From the NCBI GenBank assembly GCA_964633865.1, contig CAZWIJ010000007.1, positions 20,711-84,710 on the forward strand: a stretch of DNA of 64,000 bases. Direction: 5' to 3'. The notes below the pieces were generated by a model. The model made no database searches. It saw nothing but the letters and a program-made list of their open reading frames with translations, and was not told the origin of the DNA. This document shows positions 1 through 20,491 of this stretch, one piece after another. Both the position numbers and the translations under genes were made by a program. Every line of letters starts with the position of its first letter. The stretch's first letter is position 1. This DNA comes from an uncultured Candidatus Saccharibacteria bacterium. Lineage in GTDB: Bacteria; Patescibacteriota; Minisyncoccia; SW-4-49-11.

Positions 1-46
1 GATAAATCATTGGTCAGGTAAAGAAAATCTTTGTTCACAAAATTAT

Positions 47-853
47 TTGTTAACAGAAGAAATTTCTATTAACAAATCTTATGAATTAAGAACAATAGAA
101 TTAGAAAGATCTTTTTTGCAGATTTCAAATATTTTGACTAATGACTATAAAGTTGTTTATTCTAATAAAAAAAGGGTTGCTGGATTTTTAGATCAATTTA
201 ATCTTGAAGAAGTTATTGAAGAGAAAGATAACATTATATCAATTTACTTATTTGAGTATAATCCAAAAAATCCTAATTTGAAATCTCCAATCTTTTTTTA
301 TCTTTTATCTGTAAATATGTTTGATGGAAGTATCCTATCTTTATATAATTATCAATCTTTATCAGATTTTTTTGATTGTATTGACTCTAAAAATGGATTA
401 ATCTATTATGAAATTTTAAGAAGCTTAATCCTAACGGAAATAGCAAATTTATTAGTACCAACTTGTGCTATTCCTAATTTAGAAATTCAAAGAAAAAGAT
501 CTTATACAAGAAGTAAAAGAAATAGTGATGATGTTGAGATAATTATAAATCAAGTCTTGCTTCCAATGATAAAATCTTTACAAGATTATAAGTATGTATC
601 AAATGAATCTATTCAAGAATCACGAGATTATGAATATGAAGAATCTGGTAGACTTATTAAAGTTAGAGCTCATCTAAGAAGATTAAATCAGGGACAAAAA
701 GCCAGTAAAGAGGCTATTTCTTTTGGAAAACAAATATCTTGGGAATTTGATCATTCTCAATTTACCTTAGTAAGATCTTTCGAAAAAAAGATTAAATCTC
801 ATAAAGTAGTAGAGAATAATTTGAAAATTGGAGTTTATCGTAATAAATTTTAA
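47..853 (+). CDS. Hypothetical protein. Its C-terminal ~150 aa are paralogous to the C-terminus of 11242..12579 and share the motif SRDxEYEExGRL(I/V)KVRAHLRRL...QFTLVRS...YRNK. Likely TTG start.
   Basis: ORF track. The C-termini align by eye (YEILRSL[IV]LTEIANL, KVRAHLRRL, QFTLVRS, G[VI]YRNK[FL]). The frame is closed by a stop at 20-22 and the first codon at 47 is TTG. Confidence 0.5.
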   Translation: MLTEEISINKSYELRTIELERSFLQISNILTNDYKVVYSNKKRVAGFLDQFNLEEVIEEKDNIISIYLFEYNPKNPNLKSPIFFYLLSVNMFDGSILSLYNYQSLSDFFDCIDSKNGLIYYEILRSLILTEIANLLVPTCAIPNLEIQRKRSYTRSKRNSDDVEIIINQVLLPMIKSLQDYKYVSNESIQESRDYEYEESGRLIKVRAHLRRLNQGQKASKEAISFGKQISWEFDHSQFTLVRSFEKKIKSHKVVENNLKIGVYRNKF

Positions 854-3022: not shown

Positions 3023-3832
3023 TTAGATATATAAAGAGTTGTCTAAACATCTTATCATTGTAGGATAAATAAATAGACTAAGGAAATAATTACAATCTAA
3101 TTTTCTACTAAAATTTTCAATTAAATTCATTACCTCATTTGTATATTTATAATCTGGACTTGCAAAAACAAAGAACCATGTATATATCATAGCAACAAAA
3201 GGTGATTCAACTACATTAATCCCTAGTTGAGGGTCAATAAATAAAAATTTATCATCTTTATTTATTAAAATATTGCCAAAATGAAAGTCACCATGTTCTT
3301 CTATTACTTTTATTGATTCAGGTGGATTACTTAAAAGATTAGAAACTTCTTCGATTAAAGGATATTCGCAACTATATGTTTCAGACAACTTATTCAAAAC
3401 TTTTATCCCCATTTCCCAAGGATTTCTGTTTAAAATTGTAAAATTTTGTGAAACAATCTTTCTTTGATTTATCCAATTTACTAAAAATTCTAGGTATTCT
3501 TATAAATACATCAAACCCCTTTTGGGGTTGTTGATTAATATTTCTCCTAAAGAAATTCCTCCATCTTCAATAAATATAAGTCTCTCATTGAGTAAAGGAA
3601 CACTAATAAATTTAGGTGTTTCTAAACCTATCTGATTTAGTCTTTTTAATCCAATATGTTCAATTCGAGATGGTTTATTTATGCCTATTTCTAAACCAGA
3701 ATATTTTATATATAACCCCCCAAATTTGAATACACATTCATTAATTTTCTCTATTTTCATGCTAAACCTCTCACGATAAGGATAACTATCAAAATGTACT
3801 ATCATAAAATAATTTATGATTACAGAATTCAT
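3023..3832 (-). pseudogene. APH/choline-kinase-like phosphotransferase interrupted by one in-frame TAA (at 3500..3502).
   Basis: ORFs 3500..3832 and 3023..3412 are in the same frame. The 87 nt between them contain no other stop. The C-terminal part carries the kinase motif HGDFHFGNILI...FIDPQLG. Confidence 0.6.
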
Positions 3833-5288: not shown

Positions 5289-7520
5289 TTATTTTCTACT
5301 ATCCTCTAATTTTTGATTTAATTTAGCAATATTTTCTCTCTTAGAAACTAGTTCTTGATCAGGCTCATAATTTAGAATTTCAGAAGATGATTCTTTAATA
5401 ATTTTAGTTATATTATCAAAAGATGTATCATTAATACCTTCTAATTTTTGTTGAATATATTTAGGAAGTTGTTTATATTTTTTAGATAATTCCTCTCTAA
5501 TAGATGTTGCCTCTTGCCATTTTTGTACTTCTTTATTTAATTCTTCTTTTAATTCTATATATTTTTGTTTTTCTGAATTTACAGTATTTTGTAATTCTTT
5601 CAAACGATTAATCTCCTTATTATTTCTCAAAAGAATAAATTTTTTACTTTCAGTATCTATATCCTTTGAAAGTTTGTTCATTACATTATCAAAATCACTT
5701 ACTTCACCAAATTTACCACTTCCTACTTTGGCAGAGAGTTCAGAAGAGATTTTATCTATCTCAGATATTAAAGAGTCTCTTTTAGCCCAATCCCACTGTA
5801 AATTAAATTCCCCATCTTTAAAGCTATATTTATCATTTACTGATTCTAGTGTTTTTATAAGATTAGTATCAGCCTGTCCTTGTTCTAATGCTCTTTTATA
5901 AGACATCATAGTCTGATCTAGGTTATCCAGATTTCTATATTCTTCTGAGTCTTTAGCTTCACGGATTTGATCAGCTATGTTGCTAGTTTCTTTTTCCTTA
6001 TAAATACGACTCTCTCTTGATATTATTTGATCTATTGATTTTTTTTCTTCCTCTTGACTTCTCAAATAAAATTCATCATTTTTTTGTTTATCAAATTTAG
6101 TTTCAACTGATTTATTAAATATTTCTTGATACTGTGGGTATGATTGTAAAACATCTTCCAAATTAGAATCTTTATTAATCCAGAATGCTAATTCTTTTAA
6201 TTGAGGATCATTTGATTCAGTCAAATATACCAATCTGGCTTGTCCTGTTAATTTTAATGCTTTATTGATTGTTTTCGAATCAGGATTTAATTCTTGTAAT
6301 TGAATTAACTTATCACCTATATCATTGCTTAAAGCTTCTGAGACATCACCATCTTCCATTTTATAATTTCCTAACACATAATCTGATGTATTTCTAAACA
6401 TTTTTTTTGATATTGAGTCTTTCATTGACTCATCTTTTGCTTTATCACTTGCTTCAAATAGTGTCTGTATATATTTATTCCCTTCATCCAAACCATAAAT
6501 ACTATAAATGTCAGCAATATTTTTTTCACTAAAGAGTTCTTTTGGATTATCAAGTAAATTCTGTAATTCTTTATCTAAAATCACTTTATTATCATATATT
6601 TCTGCTTCACTTCCTATATATTTTGATTCTAATTCTTTGATATTCTCTTTAAGTTTTTCTAACTCTTCTTTTCTAGCATTATCTATCATTTGTTCAGTTT
6701 CTTCATTGAATAACTCTATATTCTTCTGACTTTCTTCTATATTTGAGTTAAGTTCAATAACTTTATTCTCTAATTTAGGATATGCTGATACAAACTCATC
6801 TACAGACATACCTGGAAATCGAGTCATTGCTTCCTCAATCTTAGAATTTAAAATGCCTTTTTGCTCTTTACTTGATTCAAATTTTTTATTTAGATTCTGT
6901 AACTCTAAAGATCTTTCTTGTGTAATTTGTTCTGCAATTCCCAAAGATGGATTATTTTCTAAATTTTGTAAAGATTCTTTTAATTCAGCGATAATTTCTC
7001 CTTGTTTTGATAATCCAGTTTCATCAGAAATTTCAAAGTCAGGAATTTTTTCTGATTCAATAACTTCAGAAGAATCTTCTATTAAGGAATCTATTGTGTC
7101 ATCCTCTAAATTCTTGGTAGTAACTTGTTCTGATTTTATATTATTAAGTGCACCATCTATTAAAGAGTCAAAATCATCTTCTTCATCATCTAGAAATTCT
7201 TCAAATCTTTCATCAGATGATGTATTTGCTTCTTCTTGTGAAGAAATCTCTTTCATTTTATCTTCAATCACAGATATTATACTAGTATACAGTTCTTTTT
7301 CCCCACCTTCATCTGATTCATCTAAACCATCTAAAATTACTTTATATTCTTCAAGACTTTTTTGAAGTTTATTTTTTTCATCATTAAGCTTAATTAATTT
7401 TTCTTTTTTATTATTTTCTTCTTCTTGTAAATTATCTATTTTCTTTACTTCTGACTCAGGATTAGTTTGTATCTTTTCTGATTGATTTGATTCATATGAG
7501 TTATTTTCAATATTATTCAT
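5289..7520 (-). CDS. Large acidic, low-complexity coiled-coil protein (E/K/N/S-rich), 743 aa.
   Basis: Long uninterrupted ORF with heptad-like E/K/L periodicity. The internal plus-strand ORFs (5674..5901, 6508..6729, 6853..7365) are shadow ORFs. Confidence 0.5.
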   Translation of the reverse strand: MNNIENNSYESNQSEKIQTNPESEVKKIDNLQEEENNKKEKLIKLNDEKNKLQKSLEEYKVILDGLDESDEGGEKELYTSIISVIEDKMKEISSQEEANTSSDERFEEFLDDEEDDFDSLIDGALNNIKSEQVTTKNLEDDTIDSLIEDSSEVIESEKIPDFEISDETGLSKQGEIIAELKESLQNLENNPSLGIAEQITQERSLELQNLNKKFESSKEQKGILNSKIEEAMTRFPGMSVDEFVSAYPKLENKVIELNSNIEESQKNIELFNEETEQMIDNARKEELEKLKENIKELESKYIGSEAEIYDNKVILDKELQNLLDNPKELFSEKNIADIYSIYGLDEGNKYIQTLFEASDKAKDESMKDSISKKMFRNTSDYVLGNYKMEDGDVSEALSNDIGDKLIQLQELNPDSKTINKALKLTGQARLVYLTESNDPQLKELAFWINKDSNLEDVLQSYPQYQEIFNKSVETKFDKQKNDEFYLRSQEEEKKSIDQIISRESRIYKEKETSNIADQIREAKDSEEYRNLDNLDQTMMSYKRALEQGQADTNLIKTLESVNDKYSFKDGEFNLQWDWAKRDSLISEIDKISSELSAKVGSGKFGEVSDFDNVMNKLSKDIDTESKKFILLRNNKEINRLKELQNTVNSEKQKYIELKEELNKEVQKWQEATSIREELSKKYKQLPKYIQQKLEGINDTSFDNITKIIKESSSEILNYEPDQELVSKRENIAKLNQKLEDSRK

Positions 7521-8236: not shown

Positions 8237-8737
8237 TTATTTTAAAAATTTCATTACATCAAATTTAAGTGGCTTTTTCCATTGAAAGAAAGCAAATGTC
8301 AGTAAAGAGGCACCTAATAGCTCAAAACTTTCTTCAAATAATACCATCACATTATATTCTTCTCTAGATAATTTTTCAGTTGTTGCATAACCTTCTATAA
8401 ATAATACACTTAGAAATAAAGTTGTACCTAAAAAAATCATAAATGAAGATAATTTATTATATTTGTAATTTTTTATCAAATGAATTAGTTCATAAATTAA
8501 AAAAGGTACACTAAATAAAATCAAAAAGATAGCATATAATACCCATATTGCTCCCTCATAACCGTAACTTTCTGCCCAAATTTTTAGATTATAAGCCATT
8601 CCAGGAAAAAAATGATTAGCATATTCTGGAAAATCTTCATGAATCATAATTATTTCATCTAATCCTATATAAATAAAAATTATACCAGAGATCCAAAAAA
8701 ACCATTTATTATATTTATCAATATATGACTTATACAA
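8237..8737 (-). CDS. Small integral membrane protein, unknown function.
   Basis: Four or five hydrophobic helices and no recognisable motif. Confidence 0.35.
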   Translation of the reverse strand: MYKSYIDKYNKWFFWISGIIFIYIGLDEIIMIHEDFPEYANHFFPGMAYNLKIWAESYGYEGAIWVLYAIFLILFSVPFLIYELIHLIKNYKYNKLSSFMIFLGTTLFLSVLFIEGYATTEKLSREEYNVMVLFEESFELLGASLLTFAFFQWKKPLKFDVMKFLK

Positions 8738-9787: not shown

Positions 9788-10726
9788 TTAAGATAATAAT
9801 TTAAGGTAAGCTTCTTCTAAAGTTGGTTTTATAATGGATACATCAGATATTTCTGTATCTATCATTTTTATATATTTTTGTACAGTCCAGCTTTTATTAA
9901 TATCTAAAGCCACAGAATTTTCTTTAGATAAATCTTCTATAATATTAATCTTTTTATCTTGTAATTCTTTCTTTAGTTTATCTATATATTTAGTTGTCAA
10001 AATAACATAATCATTCAACAAAGTCTTCTTTATTCCCTCTGGTGTATCATTCAAAATAATTTTTCCATGATTAATAATAGCAACTTGATCAGCTTGTTCA
10101 GCTTCTTCTAAATAGTGAGTTGTAAGAAAGATTGTCAAATTAGTTTCTTTTCTTAAATTATTAAGATACTCCCAAATTGATTTTCGACTAACGGGATCGA
10201 GTCCAGTAGTTGGCTCATCCAAGAATAAAATTTTAGGTTCATGTATCAGACTTCTTATAATTTCTAGTTTTCTTTTCATACCACCAGAATAAGTCTTTAC
10301 TTTTTTATGTAAAAAGTCTTTCATATCAATCAAATCAATCAATTCTTCTACTTTTTGTTTGTAATCTTCTGACATTAATGAATATGTTGGTCTAAAACTA
10401 TAAACACCATATAGTGCAGAGTGAATTCTAATATTTTCCTCACCAGTTAAGTTCTCATCTAAAGATGGTTTTTGTGCTATAATACCGATGTCTTTTCTTA
10501 TTTTGGCAGGATACTTATCTATATTTCTTTTATTTATAATGATATCTCCTGAAGTTTTTGCTAAAGTTGTTGTCAAGATAGATATTGTGGTTGTTTTCCC
10601 AGCTCCATTCTCTCCCAAAAAAGCAAAAAAACTACCTTCCTTAACATTAAAAGAAATATTATCAACCGAATTTTTATCCGCTTTTTTATATTTTTTGACT
10701 AGATTTTTAACTTGAATAATATTCAT
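9788..10726 (-). CDS. ABC transporter ATP-binding protein.
   Basis: Walker A GENGAGKTTT, ABC signature YSGGMKRKL, Walker B LFLDEPTTGLD and H-loop TTHYL. Confidence 0.9.
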   Translation of the reverse strand: MNIIQVKNLVKKYKKADKNSVDNISFNVKEGSFFAFLGENGAGKTTTISILTTTLAKTSGDIIINKRNIDKYPAKIRKDIGIIAQKPSLDENLTGEENIRIHSALYGVYSFRPTYSLMSEDYKQKVEELIDLIDMKDFLHKKVKTYSGGMKRKLEIIRSLIHEPKILFLDEPTTGLDPVSRKSIWEYLNNLRKETNLTIFLTTHYLEEAEQADQVAIINHGKIILNDTPEGIKKTLLNDYVILTTKYIDKLKKELQDKKINIIEDLSKENSVALDINKSWTVQKYIKMIDTEISDVSIIKPTLEEAYLKLLS

Positions 10727-10849
10727 ACTTAATTATTAAAATAAAATTATATATACTTACTATATCACAAATATTAAAAATTCATATCAGACTATTGCAA
10801 TATATTATTTTTTTGTTTATAATATCTATAGTAATTATGAATAATTACA

Positions 10850-10938
10850 GCTAAGATGGCGGAATTGGTAGACGCAGCGGACTTAAAATCCGCCGATACT
10901 CAAATATCGTGAGGGTTCAAGTCCCTCTCCTAGCACCA
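10850..10938 (+). tRNA. tRNA-Leu (anticodon TAA), type II with a long variable arm and encoded CCA.
   Basis: Hand-folded cloverleaf: acceptor GCTAAGA/TCCTAGC, anticodon stem GCGGA/TCCGC with loop CTTAAAA, T-arm GAGGG-TTCAAGT-CCCTC. Confidence 0.85.
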
Positions 10939-10944
10939 AAATAC

Positions 10945-10980
10945 AAAAAAAGACTGCTTTTATAAAGTAGTCTTTTTTGT
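10945..10980 (+). terminator. Rho-independent terminator downstream of tRNA-Leu.
   Basis: Hairpin AGACTGCTTT-TAT-AAAGTAGTCT followed by TTTTTTG. Confidence 0.6.
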
Positions 10981-11037
10981 AATAATAGTATAAAGTATAT
11001 GTTGACAATAATAAATCCTTTATGCTATACTAAAAAA

Positions 11038-11138
11038 AGAGATAAGACCATTTAGTTCTTTTAGAGATTTTATTACAAATAATAATCTCTAAAACGAGGC
11101 TAAGCTGAATGGCTCTCCCCCGAAAAGGGATTTTTTTG
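11038..11138 (+). ncRNA. Candidate ~100-nt small RNA between tRNA-Leu and 11242 (promoter plus terminator, no ORF).
   Basis: TTGACA (11002..11007), 18-nt spacer, TATACT (11026..11031). Internal hairpin AGAGATT...AATCTCT. Terminator TCCCCCGAAAAGGGA plus T7 at 11116..11137. Confidence 0.3.
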
Positions 11139-11241
11139 TTTTAAAATGATTCGATAATGATTTTTTATAATTTTGTAATAATTACTTGACAAAATTAGAT
11201 ATTAATGTATACTTATAAAGTCAATTTCTGTACTTTCACAA

Positions 11242-12579
11242 ATGAGGTCTTTTATGAGTATTAATTCAATAGATTTATTCAAAAATTTTGTTAAAGCAAT
11301 ATCGAAAGATGGTTACCTACATAATACATTTATCTTATATGGAGTAGAAGTTTGGCTTAAGGAAATATTTGTAACTAATTTTGAGCAAGAAAGTAAATTA
11401 GAAAATGAATTTGAGATATTTATAAAAAATCTAGATCTTATAGATAGCTATGCTAGATTAAATAATCAAGAGATTCATCTTAGTAATTTTTTTGGTATTT
11501 TATTTCAAGTAATATTAGATAAAATAATTTACACTAAGAATATCAGTAAAAAATCGAAATCTGTTAGTAAATTAACAGAACTTTCTAAAAATCAATTATA
11601 TAATCTAAGAAATTATAAATTTATAATTGGTATTATTCTCCACATAGCTGGAGCTATTAACTCATATTCAATTATAAAATCAATACTGAGTGATTTTATA
11701 ATTGATAAATGGGATTCTTATTCTTCTCTTAATAAAGCAAATAATCTTCTTTTAGAAAATATTTATGCATCTAGAATATATTCTGTCCCCAATATATTCT
11801 TAAATAAATCTCTAATTAACAACTTTACTTTACCCAATATATTAACAAATAAAGTTATTTGTTATTCTGATGAAGTGAAAAATTTAAAAAAAAGATTTAA
11901 TTGTTATACAGATTCAAATATTTTAAAGAATGAACTTTTGTGTGGAATATTTATTTATAAAGAAATTCCTAAAGAATTCATTTTAAAAGCAAATGGAAAT
12001 ACATTTATTGCAAATAAAGATACTAATTTATGGTTTTTCATAGATAAAAACGGAGATTTAGCAAGTTTTAACTCTTATTATAAGCTTTCTGTTTTATCTG
12101 AAAGATTTGAACCTAAAAAAGGACCTATTGCTTATGAAATATTGAGAAGTTTAGTATTGACTGAGATAGCGAATTTAATAGTACCAAACTATGCTCTGCC
12201 TAATTTAGGGAATAGTAAGTCAAGAAATAAGTCCAAAAGCAGAAACAATAATATTAGATTTATTGAGAATAAACTTCTTTTGCCGACTATCAAACATCTT
12301 CAATCTTGCAAAGAACAAGATAAAGATTATAAAATAGAGCAATCACGAGATTGTGAATATGAAGAAGAAGGGCGACTTGTTAAAGTCAGAGCCCACTTGA
12401 GAAGACTAAGAGAAGGACAACATGCTGGTGAACAAGCTATTGCTTTTGGCAAAAAACTAAATTGGAATTTTGATCCAACTCAATTTACTTTAGTCAGATC
12501 TCATGAAAGAGAACTTCATTCTATGAATATTCCGATTAATGATACCAAACTTGGTATTTATCGTAATAAATTAGATTAA
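11242..12579 (+). CDS. Hypothetical protein, 445 aa. Its C-terminal domain is paralogous to 47..853.
   Basis: ORF track with conserved C-terminal block (see 47..853). Its own TTGACA/TATACT promoter lies at about 11190-11225. The N-terminal portion is unrelated to 47..853. Confidence 0.55.
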   Translation: MRSFMSINSIDLFKNFVKAISKDGYLHNTFILYGVEVWLKEIFVTNFEQESKLENEFEIFIKNLDLIDSYARLNNQEIHLSNFFGILFQVILDKIIYTKNISKKSKSVSKLTELSKNQLYNLRNYKFIIGIILHIAGAINSYSIIKSILSDFIIDKWDSYSSLNKANNLLLENIYASRIYSVPNIFLNKSLINNFTLPNILTNKVICYSDEVKNLKKRFNCYTDSNILKNELLCGIFIYKEIPKEFILKANGNTFIANKDTNLWFFIDKNGDLASFNSYYKLSVLSERFEPKKGPIAYEILRSLVLTEIANLIVPNYALPNLGNSKSRNKSKSRNNNIRFIENKLLLPTIKHLQSCKEQDKDYKIEQSRDCEYEEEGRLVKVRAHLRRLREGQHAGEQAIAFGKKLNWNFDPTQFTLVRSHERELHSMNIPINDTKLGIYRNKLD

Positions 12580-12649
12580 AATTTCTTTTTCACTATATAA
12601 TTTTTATTTATCCCATGATTTAATTATCTTGGGATTTTTTATTTAAAAA

Positions 12650-12695
12650 AACACATAATTAAAAAGCCTCACTTTTAAGTGAGGCTTTAGTAAAA
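12650..12695. terminator. Bidirectional terminator between the convergent genes 11242..12579 and 12700..14799.
   Basis: AAAAGCCTCACTTTTAAGTGAGGCTTT is a perfect inverted repeat flanked by A and T runs. Confidence 0.65.
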
Positions 12696-12699
12696 TAGA

Positions 12700-14799
12700 T
12701 TAATCTTTCATTTGTTTGATCAATTTCTCAAACTCTTGTTTTTGTTCTGGATAAAGAGGTCCAGAACTTTTGCCTCTAATTAAATCATAAATTAATGACT
12801 TTTCTTTCTCATTTAATTTTTCTCCTTGTTTCAGCTTAAGTATCACAGGGCTATATCTAAGAATACTTTTTTGTAGTCTGACATCTTCACAGATTTGCTT
12901 GGCTTTCTCAAGTTCAATATGCATTCTGATGGGAAGCCACTTATAAAAAGTGTCTTTTCTTTGAAAATAACCATCATAAATTTCTCTCAAATTACCTAAA
13001 AAATTGTCTCTACATTTAACTTTTTTACCAGTTTTTTCATCGATATACATAATATAGTCAGGTGGAATTTGTTTATGAAATTTCATATACCAAATTAGAT
13101 TCCAGACTTGAAGATATTTTTCTATAATCTCTCTTTTCCAGAAACACTCAAAGAATTCTACCTGTTCTTGAGTAGCATTGGTATAAGTTTTTCTTGAAGA
13201 ACATTTTACACATTTACGTCCCAAATCAATCATCTCTCCTTTAAAAGGCTCAATTTTGTAATTGAGAAGAGGTCTTTTACCATTAGTTTGGATAAAAATT
13301 TTCAGTTTTTCCCAAATATCTTGATCAGAGAGAATATTAAAGTTTTGAATTTTCTCTCTACAATATATTAAATCTTGATTTAATTGAAAAATTTTTGCCC
13401 CCATAGAAATACTATGATGAATAAAATTATGAAGATTTTTCCCCATCTTCTCTTCATCTATATCTTTAGAAGTTCTAGAAGGAATTTTATAATGATTCTG
13501 CATAAAATAGAGAGCTTCTTTCAGATAATAATCTCTTTCAGTTAATACAGAATCATATTTTGTAAACCAATTGTCATAATAATTAGATCTCTTTGTTAAG
13601 CAAAAATGATGTTCATTCTCTTGATTAATAATAATTTTAGATTCTTCTCCTAATATCTCATGTATTTTAGCAACAGCTTGTGCTGTATATGATGCATATC
13701 TAACTATACGATGATTATATGGAAGATAAAATAATGATTTATTAGGTAAATTTAACAAATAAGTTCTTCTAGAATCTTCATCTTTCATATTAGGAATTTT
13801 ATCACCTTCAATAATATATAGACTACTATCATAACTATTATTGTCTGATAAACTTTCCATAATTATTATTGACTTAGAATAACTAAGAAGACTTACCATA
13901 TAATATTTTTGCTTTCTTGAAGGAGCTTGCTCTATACTATAGATAACATTCTTTAAATTTCCATCTTCATCTACATGTCCAATCTGATCAAGAATAAATA
14001 CTAAATTTAAATATCTTTCTTGAGCTATCAAAGAATTAATATCTTCTGCTTCTGAATTTGAATTTTGAATTAGATTCTCATCTTCTTCAAATTGGTCAGA
14101 TTTAGAATTAATTAATTCAGTATTAGCCAAATAATCTTGAATTTGCTCAACAATTTTTAAAGAATAATTATCTTTATGCTCAAATCTATAGACATTTGGT
14201 ATAGAATTTAACTCTTCCTTAGTTTTCCCAAGATACCATTCTCTTTTCTTATCACCAAAGATAAGATAAATCACATTTCCATATACAAAGCTCTCAAGAA
14301 TCATTATATTTGCTTTCAGGTTTTTTAGTGAGAAAGCAATATAACTGTGTTTTCTTACAGTATTTGGATCTGGAATGCCTCTTGTATATTCAATATTCAA
14401 AAGGCATTTTGCTAAATCTTGTTCTTGATAAATTTCTTTTAGAATTTCAAAAAAATTCTTTAGATAGTCTAAGTTTAGATAGTTATTAATCTCAAAATTT
14501 CCTTGATTAGGATCAATTAATAAATCTGGATCATCGGTAGGAACTCCATATTTATTCCAATTTATAGGAAAGAGTCTATCTAGACTAGATAAAACTATCC
14601 CTGATAGAATATTGTGTTGTTCTTTTTCCTTAACTAAATTAAGAAATGGGGATCCAGAAGTGTATTCTTGTTTAATTTCTCTTAACCAAGCAGACATTTC
14701 TTGTGATTTAAAAATCAGTCTTGCTGATGCATTACTAAATTTAATATTCTGATAATAAGTAATCAGCTCATCTAATTTGATAATGATTGGGTCATTCAT
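12700..14799 (-). CDS. Large orphan protein (699 aa) with no recognisable catalytic motifs.
   Basis: Long intact ORF with no Walker A, HExxH, HNH or DDE signature seen. Convergent with the paralog-family gene. Confidence 0.5.
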   Translation of the reverse strand: MNDPIIIKLDELITYYQNIKFSNASARLIFKSQEMSAWLREIKQEYTSGSPFLNLVKEKEQHNILSGIVLSSLDRLFPINWNKYGVPTDDPDLLIDPNQGNFEINNYLNLDYLKNFFEILKEIYQEQDLAKCLLNIEYTRGIPDPNTVRKHSYIAFSLKNLKANIMILESFVYGNVIYLIFGDKKREWYLGKTKEELNSIPNVYRFEHKDNYSLKIVEQIQDYLANTELINSKSDQFEEDENLIQNSNSEAEDINSLIAQERYLNLVFILDQIGHVDEDGNLKNVIYSIEQAPSRKQKYYMVSLLSYSKSIIIMESLSDNNSYDSSLYIIEGDKIPNMKDEDSRRTYLLNLPNKSLFYLPYNHRIVRYASYTAQAVAKIHEILGEESKIIINQENEHHFCLTKRSNYYDNWFTKYDSVLTERDYYLKEALYFMQNHYKIPSRTSKDIDEEKMGKNLHNFIHHSISMGAKIFQLNQDLIYCREKIQNFNILSDQDIWEKLKIFIQTNGKRPLLNYKIEPFKGEMIDLGRKCVKCSSRKTYTNATQEQVEFFECFWKREIIEKYLQVWNLIWYMKFHKQIPPDYIMYIDEKTGKKVKCRDNFLGNLREIYDGYFQRKDTFYKWLPIRMHIELEKAKQICEDVRLQKSILRYSPVILKLKQGEKLNEKEKSLIYDLIRGKSSGPLYPEQKQEFEKLIKQMKD

Positions 14800-14965
14800 A
14801 AGAAAAATCCCTCTTTATTAAAGTGCAATTGACTTTAGTATTCTAACACAGTTTATCTTTTTGTCAATATATTGTTACATTATTAGAGCCTATAAAAGAA
14901 AAAAGACTAACTCGTGTTAGTCTTTGGATATTAAATTTCTATCAGTATATTATCTAGTAATTACT

Positions 14966-15216: not shown

Positions 15217-17175
<1,959 letters not shown>

Positions 17176-17599
17176 TTAAATTCTTTCTCTTATACTTAAT
17201 AGTATACCTTATTTTGTAATTTTTGTCATTATCCAAAAAATAAAAAGACCCCCCAATTAAGAGTGATCCAAGAAAATTATATTAATTAAAAATTAAATGT
17301 GTTCCTAATCTTCATCAAAAGAACCTTCTTCAAGATCAAGATATTCACACAAACTATCAAGATCTTTAGAATCGAGACCCTCAGTGTAAGAACAATCTTC
17401 TTCTGAATCTGAAAACAATACTACATAGGTATTACCATTATAAAGCAATGTAGCACCACATCTTGATCTTTATTACGAATCTCTAAGAGCATATTGTTTT
17501 AAATATACAAATTATATTAAATTGGTTTTGTTCCACATAGAACAAATTATTTGGCTTTTCAATATAAAAATAGCCTCCTAAATTTAGGAGGCTATAAAA

Positions 17600-17860
17600 T
17601 TAATTATTGTTCAAGCTGTATTCTAATATCATTTTATCAATTAAAACTTTAGCTTCTTTTAAATTTTTCGCATGGAAGCATATTCCGCTCCCACCGAAAC
17701 ATTGATCATTCCATTTATCTTTATAGTGAGAAGCATATCCCACCCAAAAAAGATCTCTTTCTCGATCATAGGCAAGATCTACAACCTCACCCATAAAAAC
17801 AACCTCCCATTTCTCCAAATCATTGAAACTTTGTTCAATAATTTTGTCAAAATGATCCAT
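17600..17860 (-). CDS. Small Cys-containing protein (86 aa), paralog of 18044..18250.
   Basis: Shared W-E-[VL]-x8-L-x2-D-x4-LFW block. Own promoter (TTGACA, 17-nt spacer, TATATT, RBS GAGAGG) at about 17870..17930. Confidence 0.4.
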   Translation of the reverse strand: MDHFDKIIEQSFNDLEKWEVVFMGEVVDLAYDRERDLFWVGYASHYKDKWNDQCFGGSGICFHAKNLKEAKVLIDKMILEYSLNNN

Positions 17861-18043
17861 TTAAACCTCTCAATCAATAAGTGTACAAATTTAAATATAT
17901 CATCAATATTAGTTTTTGTCAATCTATATTTACTAAAATTTAATTTTTATATTTATATTAAAAAATATAAAATAAAAAAACAAGACATACTATATAAAGT
18001 GTGTCTTATCTTAAAATTAAATATAATTCTTAATTAAAATTTA

Positions 18044-18250
18044 TTATTCTCTAGAAGCTAAACAAGATTCTTCAAAAGTTTTATATGGCCCGAATACAGC
18101 TCCACATTCAAGCCAAAATAGGCTATTTTGGGTATCTTTATAAAGATTAAAGAAACCCAATTCTGTTATTAATTCCCAGTTTTGACAGTTTTTTAGACTA
18201 TCTTGAGTAATCTTTTCATCTAAACTTTCAGATTTATTTTTAGTTACCAT
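18044..18250 (-). CDS. Small Cys-containing protein (68 aa), paralog of 17600..17860.
   Basis: Consensus promoter TTGACA (18304..18309), 17-nt spacer, TATGAT (18281..18286). Hairpin terminator at about 18000..18030. Confidence 0.4.
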   Translation of the reverse strand: MVTKNKSESLDEKITQDSLKNCQNWELITELGFFNLYKDTQNSLFWLECGAVFGPYKTFEESCLASRE

Positions 18251-18375
18251 GTTAAATTTATATGATAAATTTACATACTTATCATATCTTATTTTAATAA
18301 TTTTGTCAATAGTAATTTACTAAAAATATTTTTAATTGTTTTTGATATATTAATTTTAATTATGTAGGTATAATC

Positions 18376-18975
18376 TTGACATTTTATATAAAAGTGATAT
18401 ACTTCTTATCGTACTTTATAAGAAAGATTATGTCATTAGAAAAATTTAAGTTTGATCAAGATCTTGTTATTTATTGTGATAACTTTAAATTAATACCAAT
18501 AGATATAGCATATACTGGAGAAATGTTTAGATCGATCTCGGATAATACCGTAAAGTTCACTTCTTTTAACAAACCAAGATGTCTTGATGAGACTCTTGAA
18601 TTTGTAAATTCAGCTATCAATCAAAATTCCAATAACGAATCTTTGATTATGATGATTCTGGAGGAAAAACCTAATAAGTTTATAGGTATGGTTGGTTTGC
18701 ATGAGCTAAAATCACATTCTCCTAAAATAGGAATTTGGATAAAAGACTCTTTTCACGGAAAAGGTATAGGAAAGAAATCTGCAAAAGCTATAATAACCTA
18801 TCTCACAGAAAAGTATTCTTTTTATAAAGAAGTAATTTATCCTGTTGCCAAAAACAATATTCCCAGCCGAAAAATTGCTGAGAATTTGGGAGGAGTACTT
18901 GATCAAAATTATAGCTCAAAATCTAAAAAATATGAATTGATCAGGTATATTATTAATTTAAGGAAAATAAGTTGA
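18376..18975 (+). CDS. GNAT family N-acetyltransferase (RimJ/RimL-like).
   Basis: Acetyl-CoA-binding motif HGKGIGKKSAKAII. Confidence 0.7.
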   Translation: MTFYIKVIYFLSYFIRKIMSLEKFKFDQDLVIYCDNFKLIPIDIAYTGEMFRSISDNTVKFTSFNKPRCLDETLEFVNSAINQNSNNESLIMMILEEKPNKFIGMVGLHELKSHSPKIGIWIKDSFHGKGIGKKSAKAIITYLTEKYSFYKEVIYPVAKNNIPSRKIAENLGGVLDQNYSSKSKKYELIRYIINLRKIS

Positions 18976-19381
18976 GCAAAAAAGCCAAAAATATAATTTA
19001 GATATTGATTTGCAATTTGTGCTAAGATAAATTATCTTAGCTTTTTATTTTAATATTAATGATAACTTGTTGATATTTTGTTGGTAACTCAGTTTTTTAT
19101 ATGGATAAATGTCTAATAACTTTGTTTATAATTATTAAGTTATGCATAGTTTAATTTAATCCACATATTTATATACATTTTATACATAAATAATCCACAT
19201 ACTTATCATTTTTGAAAACCTAATTCCAGACTATCTTTTATTTACTTTTCAACATATCCACAGGCTCTACTACTATTACTACTATATATTTATATATAAT
19301 AAGATAAAGAATAAAAGGTCTATATTTTTTAATCAATTTGGTATATAATTTAAGTATATAAGTAATTAACACTGGTAAGAT
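18976..19381. promoter_or_regulatory. Candidate replication origin (oriC) with a DnaA-box cluster and an AT-rich unwinding stretch upstream of dnaN.
   Basis: Four 8/9 matches to TTATCCACA (19100..19108 rc, 19157..19165, 19191..19199, 19254..19262), and a perfect box just after dnaN (20515..20523). A very AT-rich run sits at 19261..19330. Gene strand bias switches here. Confidence 0.5.
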
Positions 19382-20491
19382 ATGAATTTCACATGTTTGC
19401 AAGAAAATTTATTAAAAGGATTACAAATAGCTAGACAATCTTCTACAAAACAATCTATGCTACCTATATTACAAAACTATCTTTTAGAAGAAAGAGAAGG
19501 ATCTTTGATTTTAACTACAACAAATTTAGAAATTAGTATAAAAACCTATATCAGAGGTAAACAAGAAGGTAAAGGAAAAATTACAATACCACAAGATAAA
19601 TTATTAAATTATATAAAAAATTTACCACAAGATAAAATAGAAATATCTTTGGAAGAAAATACTCTAAATGTCAAAAGTGGAAATGAATTTAAAGCTAAAT
19701 TCAATGGTATGGATGCTAATGATTTTCCAGAAATACCTAATATAGAATCTAAATTAGATATAAATTTATCTACACAAGATCTAAAAGAAGCTTTTAAGAT
19801 GACAATTAATTCTCTTCCCAAAAATGATTTTAGACCAGAAATATCAGGAGTTTTATTAATGGAAAAAGAAGGAAAGTTATTTTTTGTGGGAACAGATGGT
19901 TTTAGATTAGCTGAGAAAAAGATATCTAATGTTAATTTAACGAGTACTAATTTTCAATTTATTATTCCAGCTAAAACAGTACAAGAATGCAACAGAATTT
20001 TAGATTTAGTAGATGACGAAGATGTGAAATTATCTTTTAATGATAATCAAATGTCAATGATACTTTCTTCAGTAGAGTTAACATCAAAATTAATTGAAGG
20101 GAAATATCCTCAATATGAGGGGTTAATTCCTACTAGTTTTGAAAAAAGTTTTTCAGTGGATAAGAATAGTCTGATTCAAGCTATAAGATTATCTTCTGTT
20201 TTTTCTGATGATAATATTCATGATGTTAAATTTTATTTAGTGAATAATCAAACTTTAGAAATTCAGAGTGAAACAGACAGTTATGGTGAGAATAAAACAC
20301 AAATAACTTGTCAACTGACAGGTGAAGCTGATTTTATAATCAATTTTAACTATAGTTTTATTATGGACGGGTTATCTTTGATTAAAGGTGATCTTATTAA
20401 GTTTTTTCTTAATGAGACTGATTCTCCTGTGATTATGAAGGGTGAAGATTCAGAGCAATTTTTTTATCTAGTGATGCCAATCAGAGGATAA
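19382..20491 (+). CDS. dnaN: DNA polymerase III beta sliding clamp.
   Basis: Three-domain ~370-aa protein with N-terminus MNFTCLQENLLKGLQIA...MLPIL and C-terminal LVMPIR. Confidence 0.9.
   Translation: MNFTCLQENLLKGLQIARQSSTKQSMLPILQNYLLEEREGSLILTTTNLEISIKTYIRGKQEGKGKITIPQDKLLNYIKNLPQDKIEISLEENTLNVKSGNEFKAKFNGMDANDFPEIPNIESKLDINLSTQDLKEAFKMTINSLPKNDFRPEISGVLLMEKEGKLFFVGTDGFRLAEKKISNVNLTSTNFQFIIPAKTVQECNRILDLVDDEDVKLSFNDNQMSMILSSVELTSKLIEGKYPQYEGLIPTSFEKSFSVDKNSLIQAIRLSSVFSDDNIHDVKFYLVNNQTLEIQSETDSYGENKTQITCQLTGEADFIINFNYSFIMDGLSLIKGDLIKFFLNETDSPVIMKGEDSEQFFYLVMPIRG

Follow-up and report, generated by a model that had tools for sequence, protein, structure and literature searches.

Two resident sister genes of a rare, undescribed protein family with a conserved C-terminal module in an uncultured Saccharibacteria genome

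A 64,000-nucleotide stretch of DNA from an uncultured Candidatus Saccharibacteria bacterium (contig CAZWIJ010000007.1, positions 20,711 to 84,710), referred to here as the window, carries two open reading frames (ORFs), one at its very start and one ending at position 12579, whose products can be aligned over their last ~300 residues. The locus raises the question of whether these genes are cargo of an integrated element or ordinary residents of the chromosome, and what the common part of their products might do. An earlier sequence-only reading had described them as a two-member, domain-shuffled family and favoured a selfish-element or defense-associated module. The two products, P0002 (paralog 1) and P0001 (paralog 2), belong to a rare, undescribed family of cytoplasmic proteins of approximately 370-510 aa, and in this genome both genes are resident chromosomal genes rather than cargo. 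The explanation that best accounts for the locus as a whole, put forward tentatively and at somewhat less than an even chance, is a pair of resident sister genes of this family with a nucleic-acid-binding C-terminal module. Judged by distance to described families, the family and its domain of approximately 50 residues appear to be new, in the sense of missing annotation and not of a demonstrated new mechanism.

Two paralogous genes and their products

The features of the two genes within the window are as follows.

1..853, + strand: 3' part of paralog 1 (P0002, 453 aa), codons 171-453 and the stop codon
317..799 (approximate), + strand: superfamily-wide region of about 160 aa in paralog 1, from the alignment of P0002 to P0001 residues 264-423
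11186..11213, + strand: promoter-like site of paralog 2, TTGACA-16-TATACT, 11/12 consensus matches (consensus match only)
11254..12579, + strand: paralog 2 (P0001, 441 aa), ATG at 11254 preceded by GAGG
12043..12522, + strand: P0001 residues 264-423, the region common to the Firmicutes branch (hhalign)
12337..12513, + strand: core C-terminal module, P0001 residues 362-420, predicted beta-hairpin, beta, alpha, beta (AlphaFold model and alignment)
12610..12641, + strand: terminator-like hairpin and T-run directly 3' of paralog 2 (atcccatgatttaattatcttgggatttttt), read from the sequence

This hairpin was not on the list of the terminator scanner, whose stem criteria were stricter. The reading frame of paralog 1 is open from window base 2, and positions 1-60 in frame 2 read INHWSGKENLCSQNYLLTEE, which corresponds to P0002 residues 171-190. 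The 268-aa protein with an N-terminus of its own that had been read at 47..853 is therefore a product truncated by the window start. The full product has 453 aa, and the gene start and promoter lie upstream, where longer contigs carry folA-thyA, followed by the thyA terminator and a TTGACA-17-TATTAT in a 140-nt spacer. Of the promoters that had been ascribed to both copies, that of paralog 2 is in the window while that of paralog 1 is found only on the longer contigs. The mechanical ORF of paralog 2 begins at 11242; gene callers chose 11254 on all contigs, and the ATG at this position is likely the true start of a 441-aa product. Both ORFs are real, separately transcribed (monocistronic) genes, because identical proteins were encoded on 23 contigs for P0001 and 22 for P0002 (JGI, ENA, Logan and NCBI samples) and each gene has its own promoter-like site and terminator hairpin.

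The paralogy of the two products was borne out. BLASTP of the visible 47..853 copy against the 11242..12579 copy gave an E-value of 8e-56 with 40% identity over 281 columns, and the full P0002 against P0001 gave 2e-57 over 306 columns. The proteins are collinear over their last ~300 residues, all visible residues of the first copy align to residues 169-445 of the second, and the shared blocks that had been listed (YEILRSL[IV]LTEIANL, LLP.IK.LQ, EYEE.GRL[IV]KVRAHLRRL, QFTLVRS and G[IV]YRNK) are all present. The regions that had been compared as unrelated N-terminal regions were not N-termini. The statement nevertheless holds for the full proteins, as the first ~140 residues of P0001 and P0002 showed no detectable similarity (Smith-Waterman z 0.68 against shuffles).

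The N-terminus of P0002 resembled those of the nearest outside relatives, P0016 and P0017, which are described below (z 5.6; P0016 against P0017 z 7.3), and in the pairwise shuffle test N-terminal similarity was limited to the P0002-P0017 and P0016-P0017 pairs. Since it is the N-terminus of P0002 and not that of P0001 which resembles the outside relatives, P0001 is the divergent duplicate. Pairwise identity in the 21-sequence alignment was 36% between P0001 and P0002 and 23-27% between either of them and P0016 or P0017. The pair is thus the product of a duplication within this lineage, because the two are closer to one another (36-40%) than to their nearest outside relatives (23-27%).

Resident genes rather than an integrated element

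Core genes (folA-thyA, an ABC transporter, gyrB and dnaN) are the neighbours of both copies. Copy 1 follows folA-thyA, and copy 2 lies between the ABC transporter with tRNA-Leu on one side and a convergent orphan gene of 699 aa on the other. No integrase, recombinase or transposase ORF was found between 8 and 17 kb or near either copy in the window. The 25-nt 3' end of tRNA-Leu occurred once in the 64 kb with three mismatches allowed, giving no attachment (att) repeat, and no shift in composition was seen, the GC content staying at 0.22-0.29 throughout 1-15 kb. Contigs of the same population were found in many JGI, ENA and Logan metagenomes, and there was no presence/absence polymorphism, paralog 2 being present and identical in all 23 contigs. 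Both paralogs are therefore resident genes, as indicated by the core neighbours, the missing att repeat and the flat GC content. Paralog 2 had been placed immediately downstream of tRNA-Leu as at a classic integration hotspot. The tRNA does lie upstream, but at 303 nt from the ORF and with a promoter, a hairpin of ~100 nt and a T-run in between.

One contig (L005) was 100% identical to window positions 10134-14441 and carried different DNA beyond 14885, including a fasciclin-domain gene, an 841-aa gene, an M50 protease, acylphosphatase, rplI and pyrG. Its 39 differences from the window were all packed into 14442-14874, the last 430 nt before the breakpoint, where the promoter of the 699-aa gene and its first ~120 codons lie (L005 4310-4750). 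This suggests that a second, diverged copy of this 5' segment exists elsewhere in the genome and gave rise to a recombinant strain or a chimeric assembly. The contig was consequently rejected as evidence of either synteny or mobility, its junction being recombinant or chimeric.

Size and reach of the family

The family has more than the two members originally proposed. A word-indexed search of 5.8 billion proteins returned the two paralogs only. An exhaustive HMMER search of 1.84 billion representatives with a two-sequence profile returned five proteins at E<=1e-3: P0001, a fragment of P0002, P0016 (452 aa, E 1e-30), P0017 (457 aa, E 4e-28) and P0018 (367 aa, E 3e-5). P0016 came from an ENA metagenome contig and P0017 from the metagenome-assembled genome (MAG) of a Parcubacteria group bacterium, T3Sed10_326m (PXDG01000036.1). 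Both are related to the window proteins over the full length (452-457 aa) at 23-27% identity and E 1e-28 to 1e-30, with an N-terminus akin to that of P0002. Like the window paralogs, both are chromosomal and stand alone among housekeeping genes, but neither has a 699-aa partner. The MAG of P0017 also differs in having one copy found (in a pattern-limited scan) and other neighbours (rplI, pyrG and riboflavin genes). A first scan of GTDB genomes found nothing and a later one only the Parcubacteria MAG, while metagenome scans gave no locus in the first round and three in the second.

For the P0018 branch HMMER returned ten proteins, and this subfamily has nine further members of 420-510 aa from uncultivated bacteria. 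They have the motif REVRLHGVVWHIRxLPxGWHASPEAxxLAxxAGIxLxxGETFVRPHxRG, and otherwise ordinary genes are found on their contigs (groEL, pgi, murligase, T4SS_pilin, tsaD, valS). P0022 and P0026 adjoin groEL, pgi, tsaD and valS, and P0023 has a type I restriction-modification operon on one side and MT-A70 and VirD4-like genes on the other. The branch invariants K221, E338 and D345 (P0023 numbering) are replaced in the window proteins.

A more distant branch was reached with tblastn of family members against PLSDB, which turned up hypothetical proteins (439-473 aa) encoded by five megaplasmids from Firmicutes, 360-722 kb in size. A further set came from IMG/VR.

WP_013483353.1: Ruminococcus albus, pRUMAL01
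WP_013386250.1: Paenibacillus polymyxa, pSC2
WP_061429856.1: Clostridium perfringens, pJFP838A
WP_272444142.1: Aneurinibacillus
WP_272050403.1: Paenibacillus thiaminolyticus
Loci L039 and L042-L056: IMG/VR relatives on predicted viral (virus-classified) contigs

The family hidden Markov model scored ~50 bits on each of two megaplasmid proteins, on the C-terminal motif. Alignment of the set from the Candidate Phyla Radiation (CPR) with the Firmicutes sets by hhalign gave probabilities of 99.1% (A4-A8, E 1.6e-18) and 98.8% (A4-A10, E 4.5e-17, 149 columns). The match was collinear and covered P0001 residues 264-423 only, the N-terminal regions being not detectably related. The description as domain-shuffled therefore applies at the level of the superfamily, in which the C-terminal ~150-160 aa are combined with N-terminal regions showing no detectable relationship, while in this genome it was an artefact of the window edge.

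Scans of IMG/VR with CPR-type alignments gave nothing, and its members were found only by a Firmicutes-type alignment and a hand-made degenerate DNA pattern. The pattern, LPxGxx[AP]SxxAxxxAxxxGxxL....T[FY]V, matched 15 contigs of 5-222 kb with the motif in frame in all fifteen. Seven of eight loci examined encoded full-length proteins of 477-514 aa, the eighth being cut by the end of the locus. In two of the eight (L042 and L045, identical 477-aa proteins) the gene directly follows a Tn916/Tn1549-type integrase (E 5e-43 to PDB 6EMY), which is a separate gene from the family member. Another member is located near DUF932, GT4-conflict glycosyltransferases and patatin, and the other neighbours of IMG/VR members that were searched had no PDB match. 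The megaplasmid and IMG/VR proteins are like the window proteins in length (439-514 aa), in the collinear placement of the common region and in the last ~160 residues, which are homologous and carry the same R-x-LPxG-x-x-AS-x-EA...GETFVRP module. They differ in the first ~300 residues, in their mobile or extrachromosomal location and at the module histidines, where F, Y or Q predominate.

A Streptococcus salivarius plasmid protein has the module at its extreme C-terminus after an acidic linker (36.6 bits). On this plasmid, pSsal-YU10 (L040 3755-5147), overlapping ORFs of 255 and 224 aa jointly span 464 codons, a typical family length; the second ends with the module and is followed by a Y-family DNA polymerase gene. 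The two ORFs may be one frameshifted gene. No relatives were found by tblastn in deposited phages (50,697 GenBank phage records), and mycobacteriophage 'terminase' hits, at E 2 and with 12 bits against the profile of the module, were rejected as chance matches.

The five megaplasmids (L031, L032, L036, L037 and L038) have no replicon type assigned in PLSDB. pJFP838A has been described as a unique megaplasmid of mostly hypothetical content, with 70% of its coding sequences hypothetical (PMC4747519). It carries 10 tRNAs, and the stretch viewed contained nrdJ, clpP and TerD. RNase III and a topoisomerase (pRUMAL01) and thioredoxin (Aneurinibacillus) were among the phage-like or auxiliary genes in the other stretches viewed. 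Relatives of the megaplasmid protein also occur on IMG/VR contigs of 100-220 kb.

Architecture and conservation of the C-terminal module

An AlphaFold model built with only the two paralogs was unusable (mean predicted local distance difference test, pLDDT, 37.7), while one built with 14 sequences had a predicted template modelling score (pTM) of 0.69 and pLDDT values mostly of 70-90 over residues 130-420. In the P0001 model, helices extend to ~175 and are followed by a mixed alpha/beta part (181-285); next come a long conserved helix (290-309), a linker of Lys, Arg, Ser and Asn that is modelled as disordered (310-333) and the LLPxIK helix (334-358). The module itself runs in the model from a beta-hairpin (364-384) through a short strand (389-391) and a helix (393-401) to a final strand (411-416). 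The order of the common region is accordingly an invariant Gly, the conserved helix (YEILRSLVLTEIANLIVP), the Lys/Arg/Ser-rich linker, the LLPxIK helix and the C-terminal module.

Conservation was counted over 21 sequences, the seed alignment containing 21-30. The core of the module is a basic stretch of ~50 residues with the pattern R-x-L-P-x-G-x-x-A-S-x-E-A...G-E-T-F-V-R-P, or more generally R-x-L-(P)-x-G-x-x-A-[SG]-x-x-A-x-x-x-[AG]...L...T-[FLY]-V-[RKQ]-x-[HFY]-x-[RK]. Five residues (R383, L385, A395, T412 and V414, P0001 numbering) are invariant in 21/21 and are carried by both window proteins; G388, A399 and L406 are nearly invariant. Columns 374, 383, 384, 415, 419 and 437 are mostly basic, five of them in 71-100% of sequences, and columns 372, 394, 409 and 411 mostly acidic. 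His381 is present in 15/21 members and is elsewhere Y, F, Q or A. His417 is present in 12/21 and is elsewhere F or Y, including F417 in P0002. Within the Firmicutes branch, one of seven members has His381 and none of the seven has His417. The isoelectric point (pI) of the module was 9-11 in 15/21 members, though many of the whole proteins are acidic.

Searches for known families and folds

The C-terminal domain had been called unrecognised, and it remained so across all collections searched. Single- and two-sequence searches of Pfam, PHROGs, NCBIfam, PADLOC and PDB gave nothing, and none of the 21 members matched Pfam, NCBIfam, PHROG, PADLOC or PDB sequences. PHROGs v4 had no match at E<0.05, PADLOC-DB v2 assigned 0 families to the window proteins and the 699-aa neighbour, and a single PADLOC hit among the 21 members was a chance one (E 0.023). 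The PDB sequence-profile search was likewise negative. Foldseek with the medium-quality AlphaFold model (pTM 0.69, 14 sequences) gave no match in PDB or BFVD. RefSeq annotates the relatives as 'hypothetical protein' only.

Individual candidates were also considered. The sequence-only reading had itself set aside a tyrosine-recombinase box II, and this was upheld: only the letters A-H-L-R-R-L agree, there is no catalytic Tyr context, and no hit to the Pfam or NCBIfam Phage_integrase model (R-K-H-R-H/W-Y domain) was obtained at E<=1. AbrB, MazE and SpoVT swapped-hairpin domains superficially resemble the module in size, in the order of strands and short helix and in a 'G-x-x-L...G-[DE]-x-h-x-V' pattern. 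They were rejected at an hhalign probability of 2.8%, in a test with five AbrB, SpoVT, Abh, MazE and PemI sequences, and no Pfam SpoVT_AbrB or MazE hit was found. An HNH or beta-beta-alpha-metal nuclease was rejected with H381 in only 15/21 and no conserved metal ligand in the helix columns 393-401; HNH, GIY-YIG, PD-(D/E)xK and other nuclease models had no match in Pfam, NCBIfam or PADLOC. Inspection of the alignment also led to rejection of GIY-YIG, as the 'GIY' of GIYRNK is unconserved, and of HEPN (R-x4-6-H), LysM, helix-turn-helix and sortase-signal candidates, in which key residues are unconserved or the predicted secondary structure is at odds with the fold. Searches of Pfam and NCBIfam likewise gave no similarity to Rep, ParB or nucleoid-protein families.

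Proposed function and alternative explanations

The function proposed for the family is that of a non-enzymatic nucleic-acid-binding protein acting through the basic C-terminal module, which is possible but, on balance, doubtful. The basic module would contact nucleic acid, probably DNA, through Arg383 and the basic positions 374, 384, 415 and 419. The divergent N-terminal region would supply lineage-specific partners or oligomerisation, and exchange of the family between mobile elements and chromosomes would lie far back in time. A non-enzymatic role was preferred because only R383, L385, A395, T412 and V414 are invariant, the histidines are replaced and the charged residues invariant in the P0018 branch are not kept in the window proteins. 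Several points weigh against this reading. The case for nucleic-acid binding draws on charge, size and missing catalytic conservation, and 5/21 modules are neutral or acidic with a pI of 5.2-6.7, including those of P0019, P0024 and the relatives from P. polymyxa (L031) and R. albus (L032). No fold match from Foldseek against PDB and BFVD backs any function, the AlphaFold model being of medium quality and built from 14 sequences only. The His, Arg and Thr conserved in most members could be an active site lost by a few, and a role in conflict would agree equally well with the occurrence of the distant branch on mobile elements.

Such a role would make the protein a conflict module consisting of one gene, serving defence, anti-defence, abortive infection or addiction, with a variable N-terminal sensor and a conserved C-terminal effector. 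It would be mobile-borne and retained here after an old insertion beside tRNA-Leu. The occurrence of distant relatives on Firmicutes megaplasmids and IMG/VR contigs, with two of the eight examined loci following a Tn916/Tn1549-type integrase, is in keeping with it, as are the locus beside DUF932, GT4-conflict glycosyltransferases and patatin, the position of P0023 between restriction-modification and MT-A70/VirD4-like genes, and N-terminal regions that are not detectably related between branches. The genes also stand alone and one copy follows a tRNA gene. However, no PADLOC model matches any of the 21 members, no effector chemistry can be recognised, the histidines vary, and the phage records gave no match beyond one weak set of chance hits. 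At this locus there is no integrase, att repeat, composition shift or nuclease signature, both copies and most CPR-type relatives lie among housekeeping genes, and the 699-aa neighbour is not co-conserved. The selfish-element or defense interpretation thus keeps its footing for the distant relatives, on megaplasmids, integrase-adjacent contigs and the Streptococcus plasmid, and loses it for the window; as an explanation of the family it is unlikely. The module might instead be catalytic, as in a small nuclease or phosphotransferase that employs His381, Arg383 and His417, with His-less members as inactive derivatives. This would agree with the frequency of H381 (15/21) and H417 (12/21) and with the invariant R383 and T412, and the beta-beta-alpha arrangement around H381 superficially recalls the beta-beta-alpha-metal nucleases. 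Both histidines give way to F, Y, Q or A in whole branches (F417 in P0002, and in Firmicutes the near loss of the first and the absence of the second), the helix lacks a conserved acidic or Asn/His metal ligand, and neither a nuclease model nor a PDB profile or Foldseek match was obtained, which makes catalysis very unlikely.

Proximity of the paralogs to a GC-skew minimum (within ~6 and ~17 kb), the basic module and five relative-bearing megaplasmids without an assigned replicon type would suit a replicon-maintenance factor (replication, segregation or nucleoid organisation), acting near the replication origin (oriC) in CPR bacteria and on megaplasmids in Firmicutes. The plasmid genes, however, are not at a switch of gene orientation, the other CPR-type members share no link to replication genes, and Rep, ParB and nucleoid-protein families show no similarity, leaving this improbable. 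There is similarly only a slim chance that the module serves as a docking or recognition element for a cellular machine, such as the ribosome, RNA polymerase or a coupling protein of type IV secretion or conjugation. It would account for the S. salivarius protein with the module at its extreme C-terminus after an acidic linker, for relatives on elements with mating-pair-formation genes and next to a VirD4-like gene, and for the modules that are not basic. The evidence is contextual, though, with no partner gene kept beside the family in any branch, and the module is predicted to be a folded unit of ~50 residues and not a short signal peptide. A broader scenario, in which an undescribed nucleic-acid-binding or machine-docking fold that moves with megaplasmids, integrative elements of Firmicutes and large phage-like genomes was captured and duplicated by CPR bacteria, its head-on, origin-proximal paralogs acting in the DNA transactions of a minimal genome or in the interplay of episymbiont and host, is quite unlikely.

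For the preferred nucleic-acid-binding reading, a functional analogy is offered by KilA-N, Bro-N, ANT and ORF6C proteins. In these a small conserved DNA-binding module is combined with unrelated partners and scattered over phage and plasmid DNA, occasionally on chromosomes. There is no Pfam or PHROG sequence match between them and the family. If the module were a new DNA- or RNA-binding fold or a conflict effector, a set of 'hypothetical proteins' would gain a name and a handle. These proteins link CPR chromosomes, Firmicutes megaplasmids, a Tn916-like element and large virus-classified contigs, and would in that event also be a further example of genes passing between mobile elements and ultra-small bacteria. 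The practical value is modest, since genomes of this kind often contain lineage-specific families without annotation. What the analysis chiefly yields is the domain boundary, the motif, the seed alignment and the finding that the window copies are not an integrated element.

Genomic setting of the window

The window is gene-dense with ~25% GC. Besides the two paralogs it holds polA, ABC-transporter genes and two tRNA genes, and an Rfam search found no rRNA gene in it. The Parcubacteria MAG as origin of the nearest outside relative, together with the spread of the population over many metagenomes, suggests that the source of this AT-rich, small genome is a CPR bacterium. Features neighbouring the paralogs are listed below.

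10850..10938, + strand: tRNA-Leu, anticodon UAA (ARAGORN; Rfam 56.6 bits), a neighbour outside the family
11002..11145, + strand: promoter-like TTGACA-18-TATACT with TG (11002-11031), then a structured RNA of ~100 nt
12700..14799, - strand: 699-aa orphan gene, convergent with paralog 2, a neighbour only, with no link to the family
15217..17160, - strand: gyrB
19382..20491, + strand: dnaN

The gap between tRNA-Leu(UAA) and paralog 2 contains the terminator-like hairpin of the tRNA, the second promoter-like site, and the hairpin RNA with its T-run. This RNA has a long hairpin followed by a short GC terminator-like hairpin (minimum free energy -28.7 kcal/mol, z -3.74, 0/200 shuffles), has no Rfam family match and does not vary among the strain contigs. 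It may be a small RNA or an attenuator-type leader of paralog 2.

The 699-aa ORF is convergent with paralog 2 and without a family match (Pfam, PHROG, NCBIfam, PADLOC), as first read. The suggestion that it might co-occur with the family failed: tblastn found no relative of it beside P0016 or P0017, and the 699-aa protein is therefore not a partner of the family.

Cumulative GC skew is lowest at ~17-19 kb, in the interval from gyrB (-) to dnaN (+), and this is likely the replication origin. Gene orientation switches at approximately 17000-19400, and no dnaA is located next to dnaN. Within 1-17 kb the minus strand carries every ORF of 80 aa or longer except the two paralogs and an antisense ORF at 6853-7365. 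As plus-strand genes among minus-strand ones with an origin at ~17-19 kb, the paralogs are head-on to replication.

The antisense ORF lies inside a gene for a 743-aa protein (5289-7520, - strand) situated between the paralogs. The protein is very acidic, Glu/Lys/Ser-rich, apparently coiled-coil and without a Pfam hit, and is another lineage-specific orphan. Two Wzy_C (O-antigen-ligase-like) genes flank small ORFs at 3023-3832 (- strand), for which the called length was 110 or 86 aa among strain contigs (L002, L012 and others). The ORF at 8237-8737 was similarly called with 166 or 136 aa. These differences in called length hint at strain-level indels or alternative starts.

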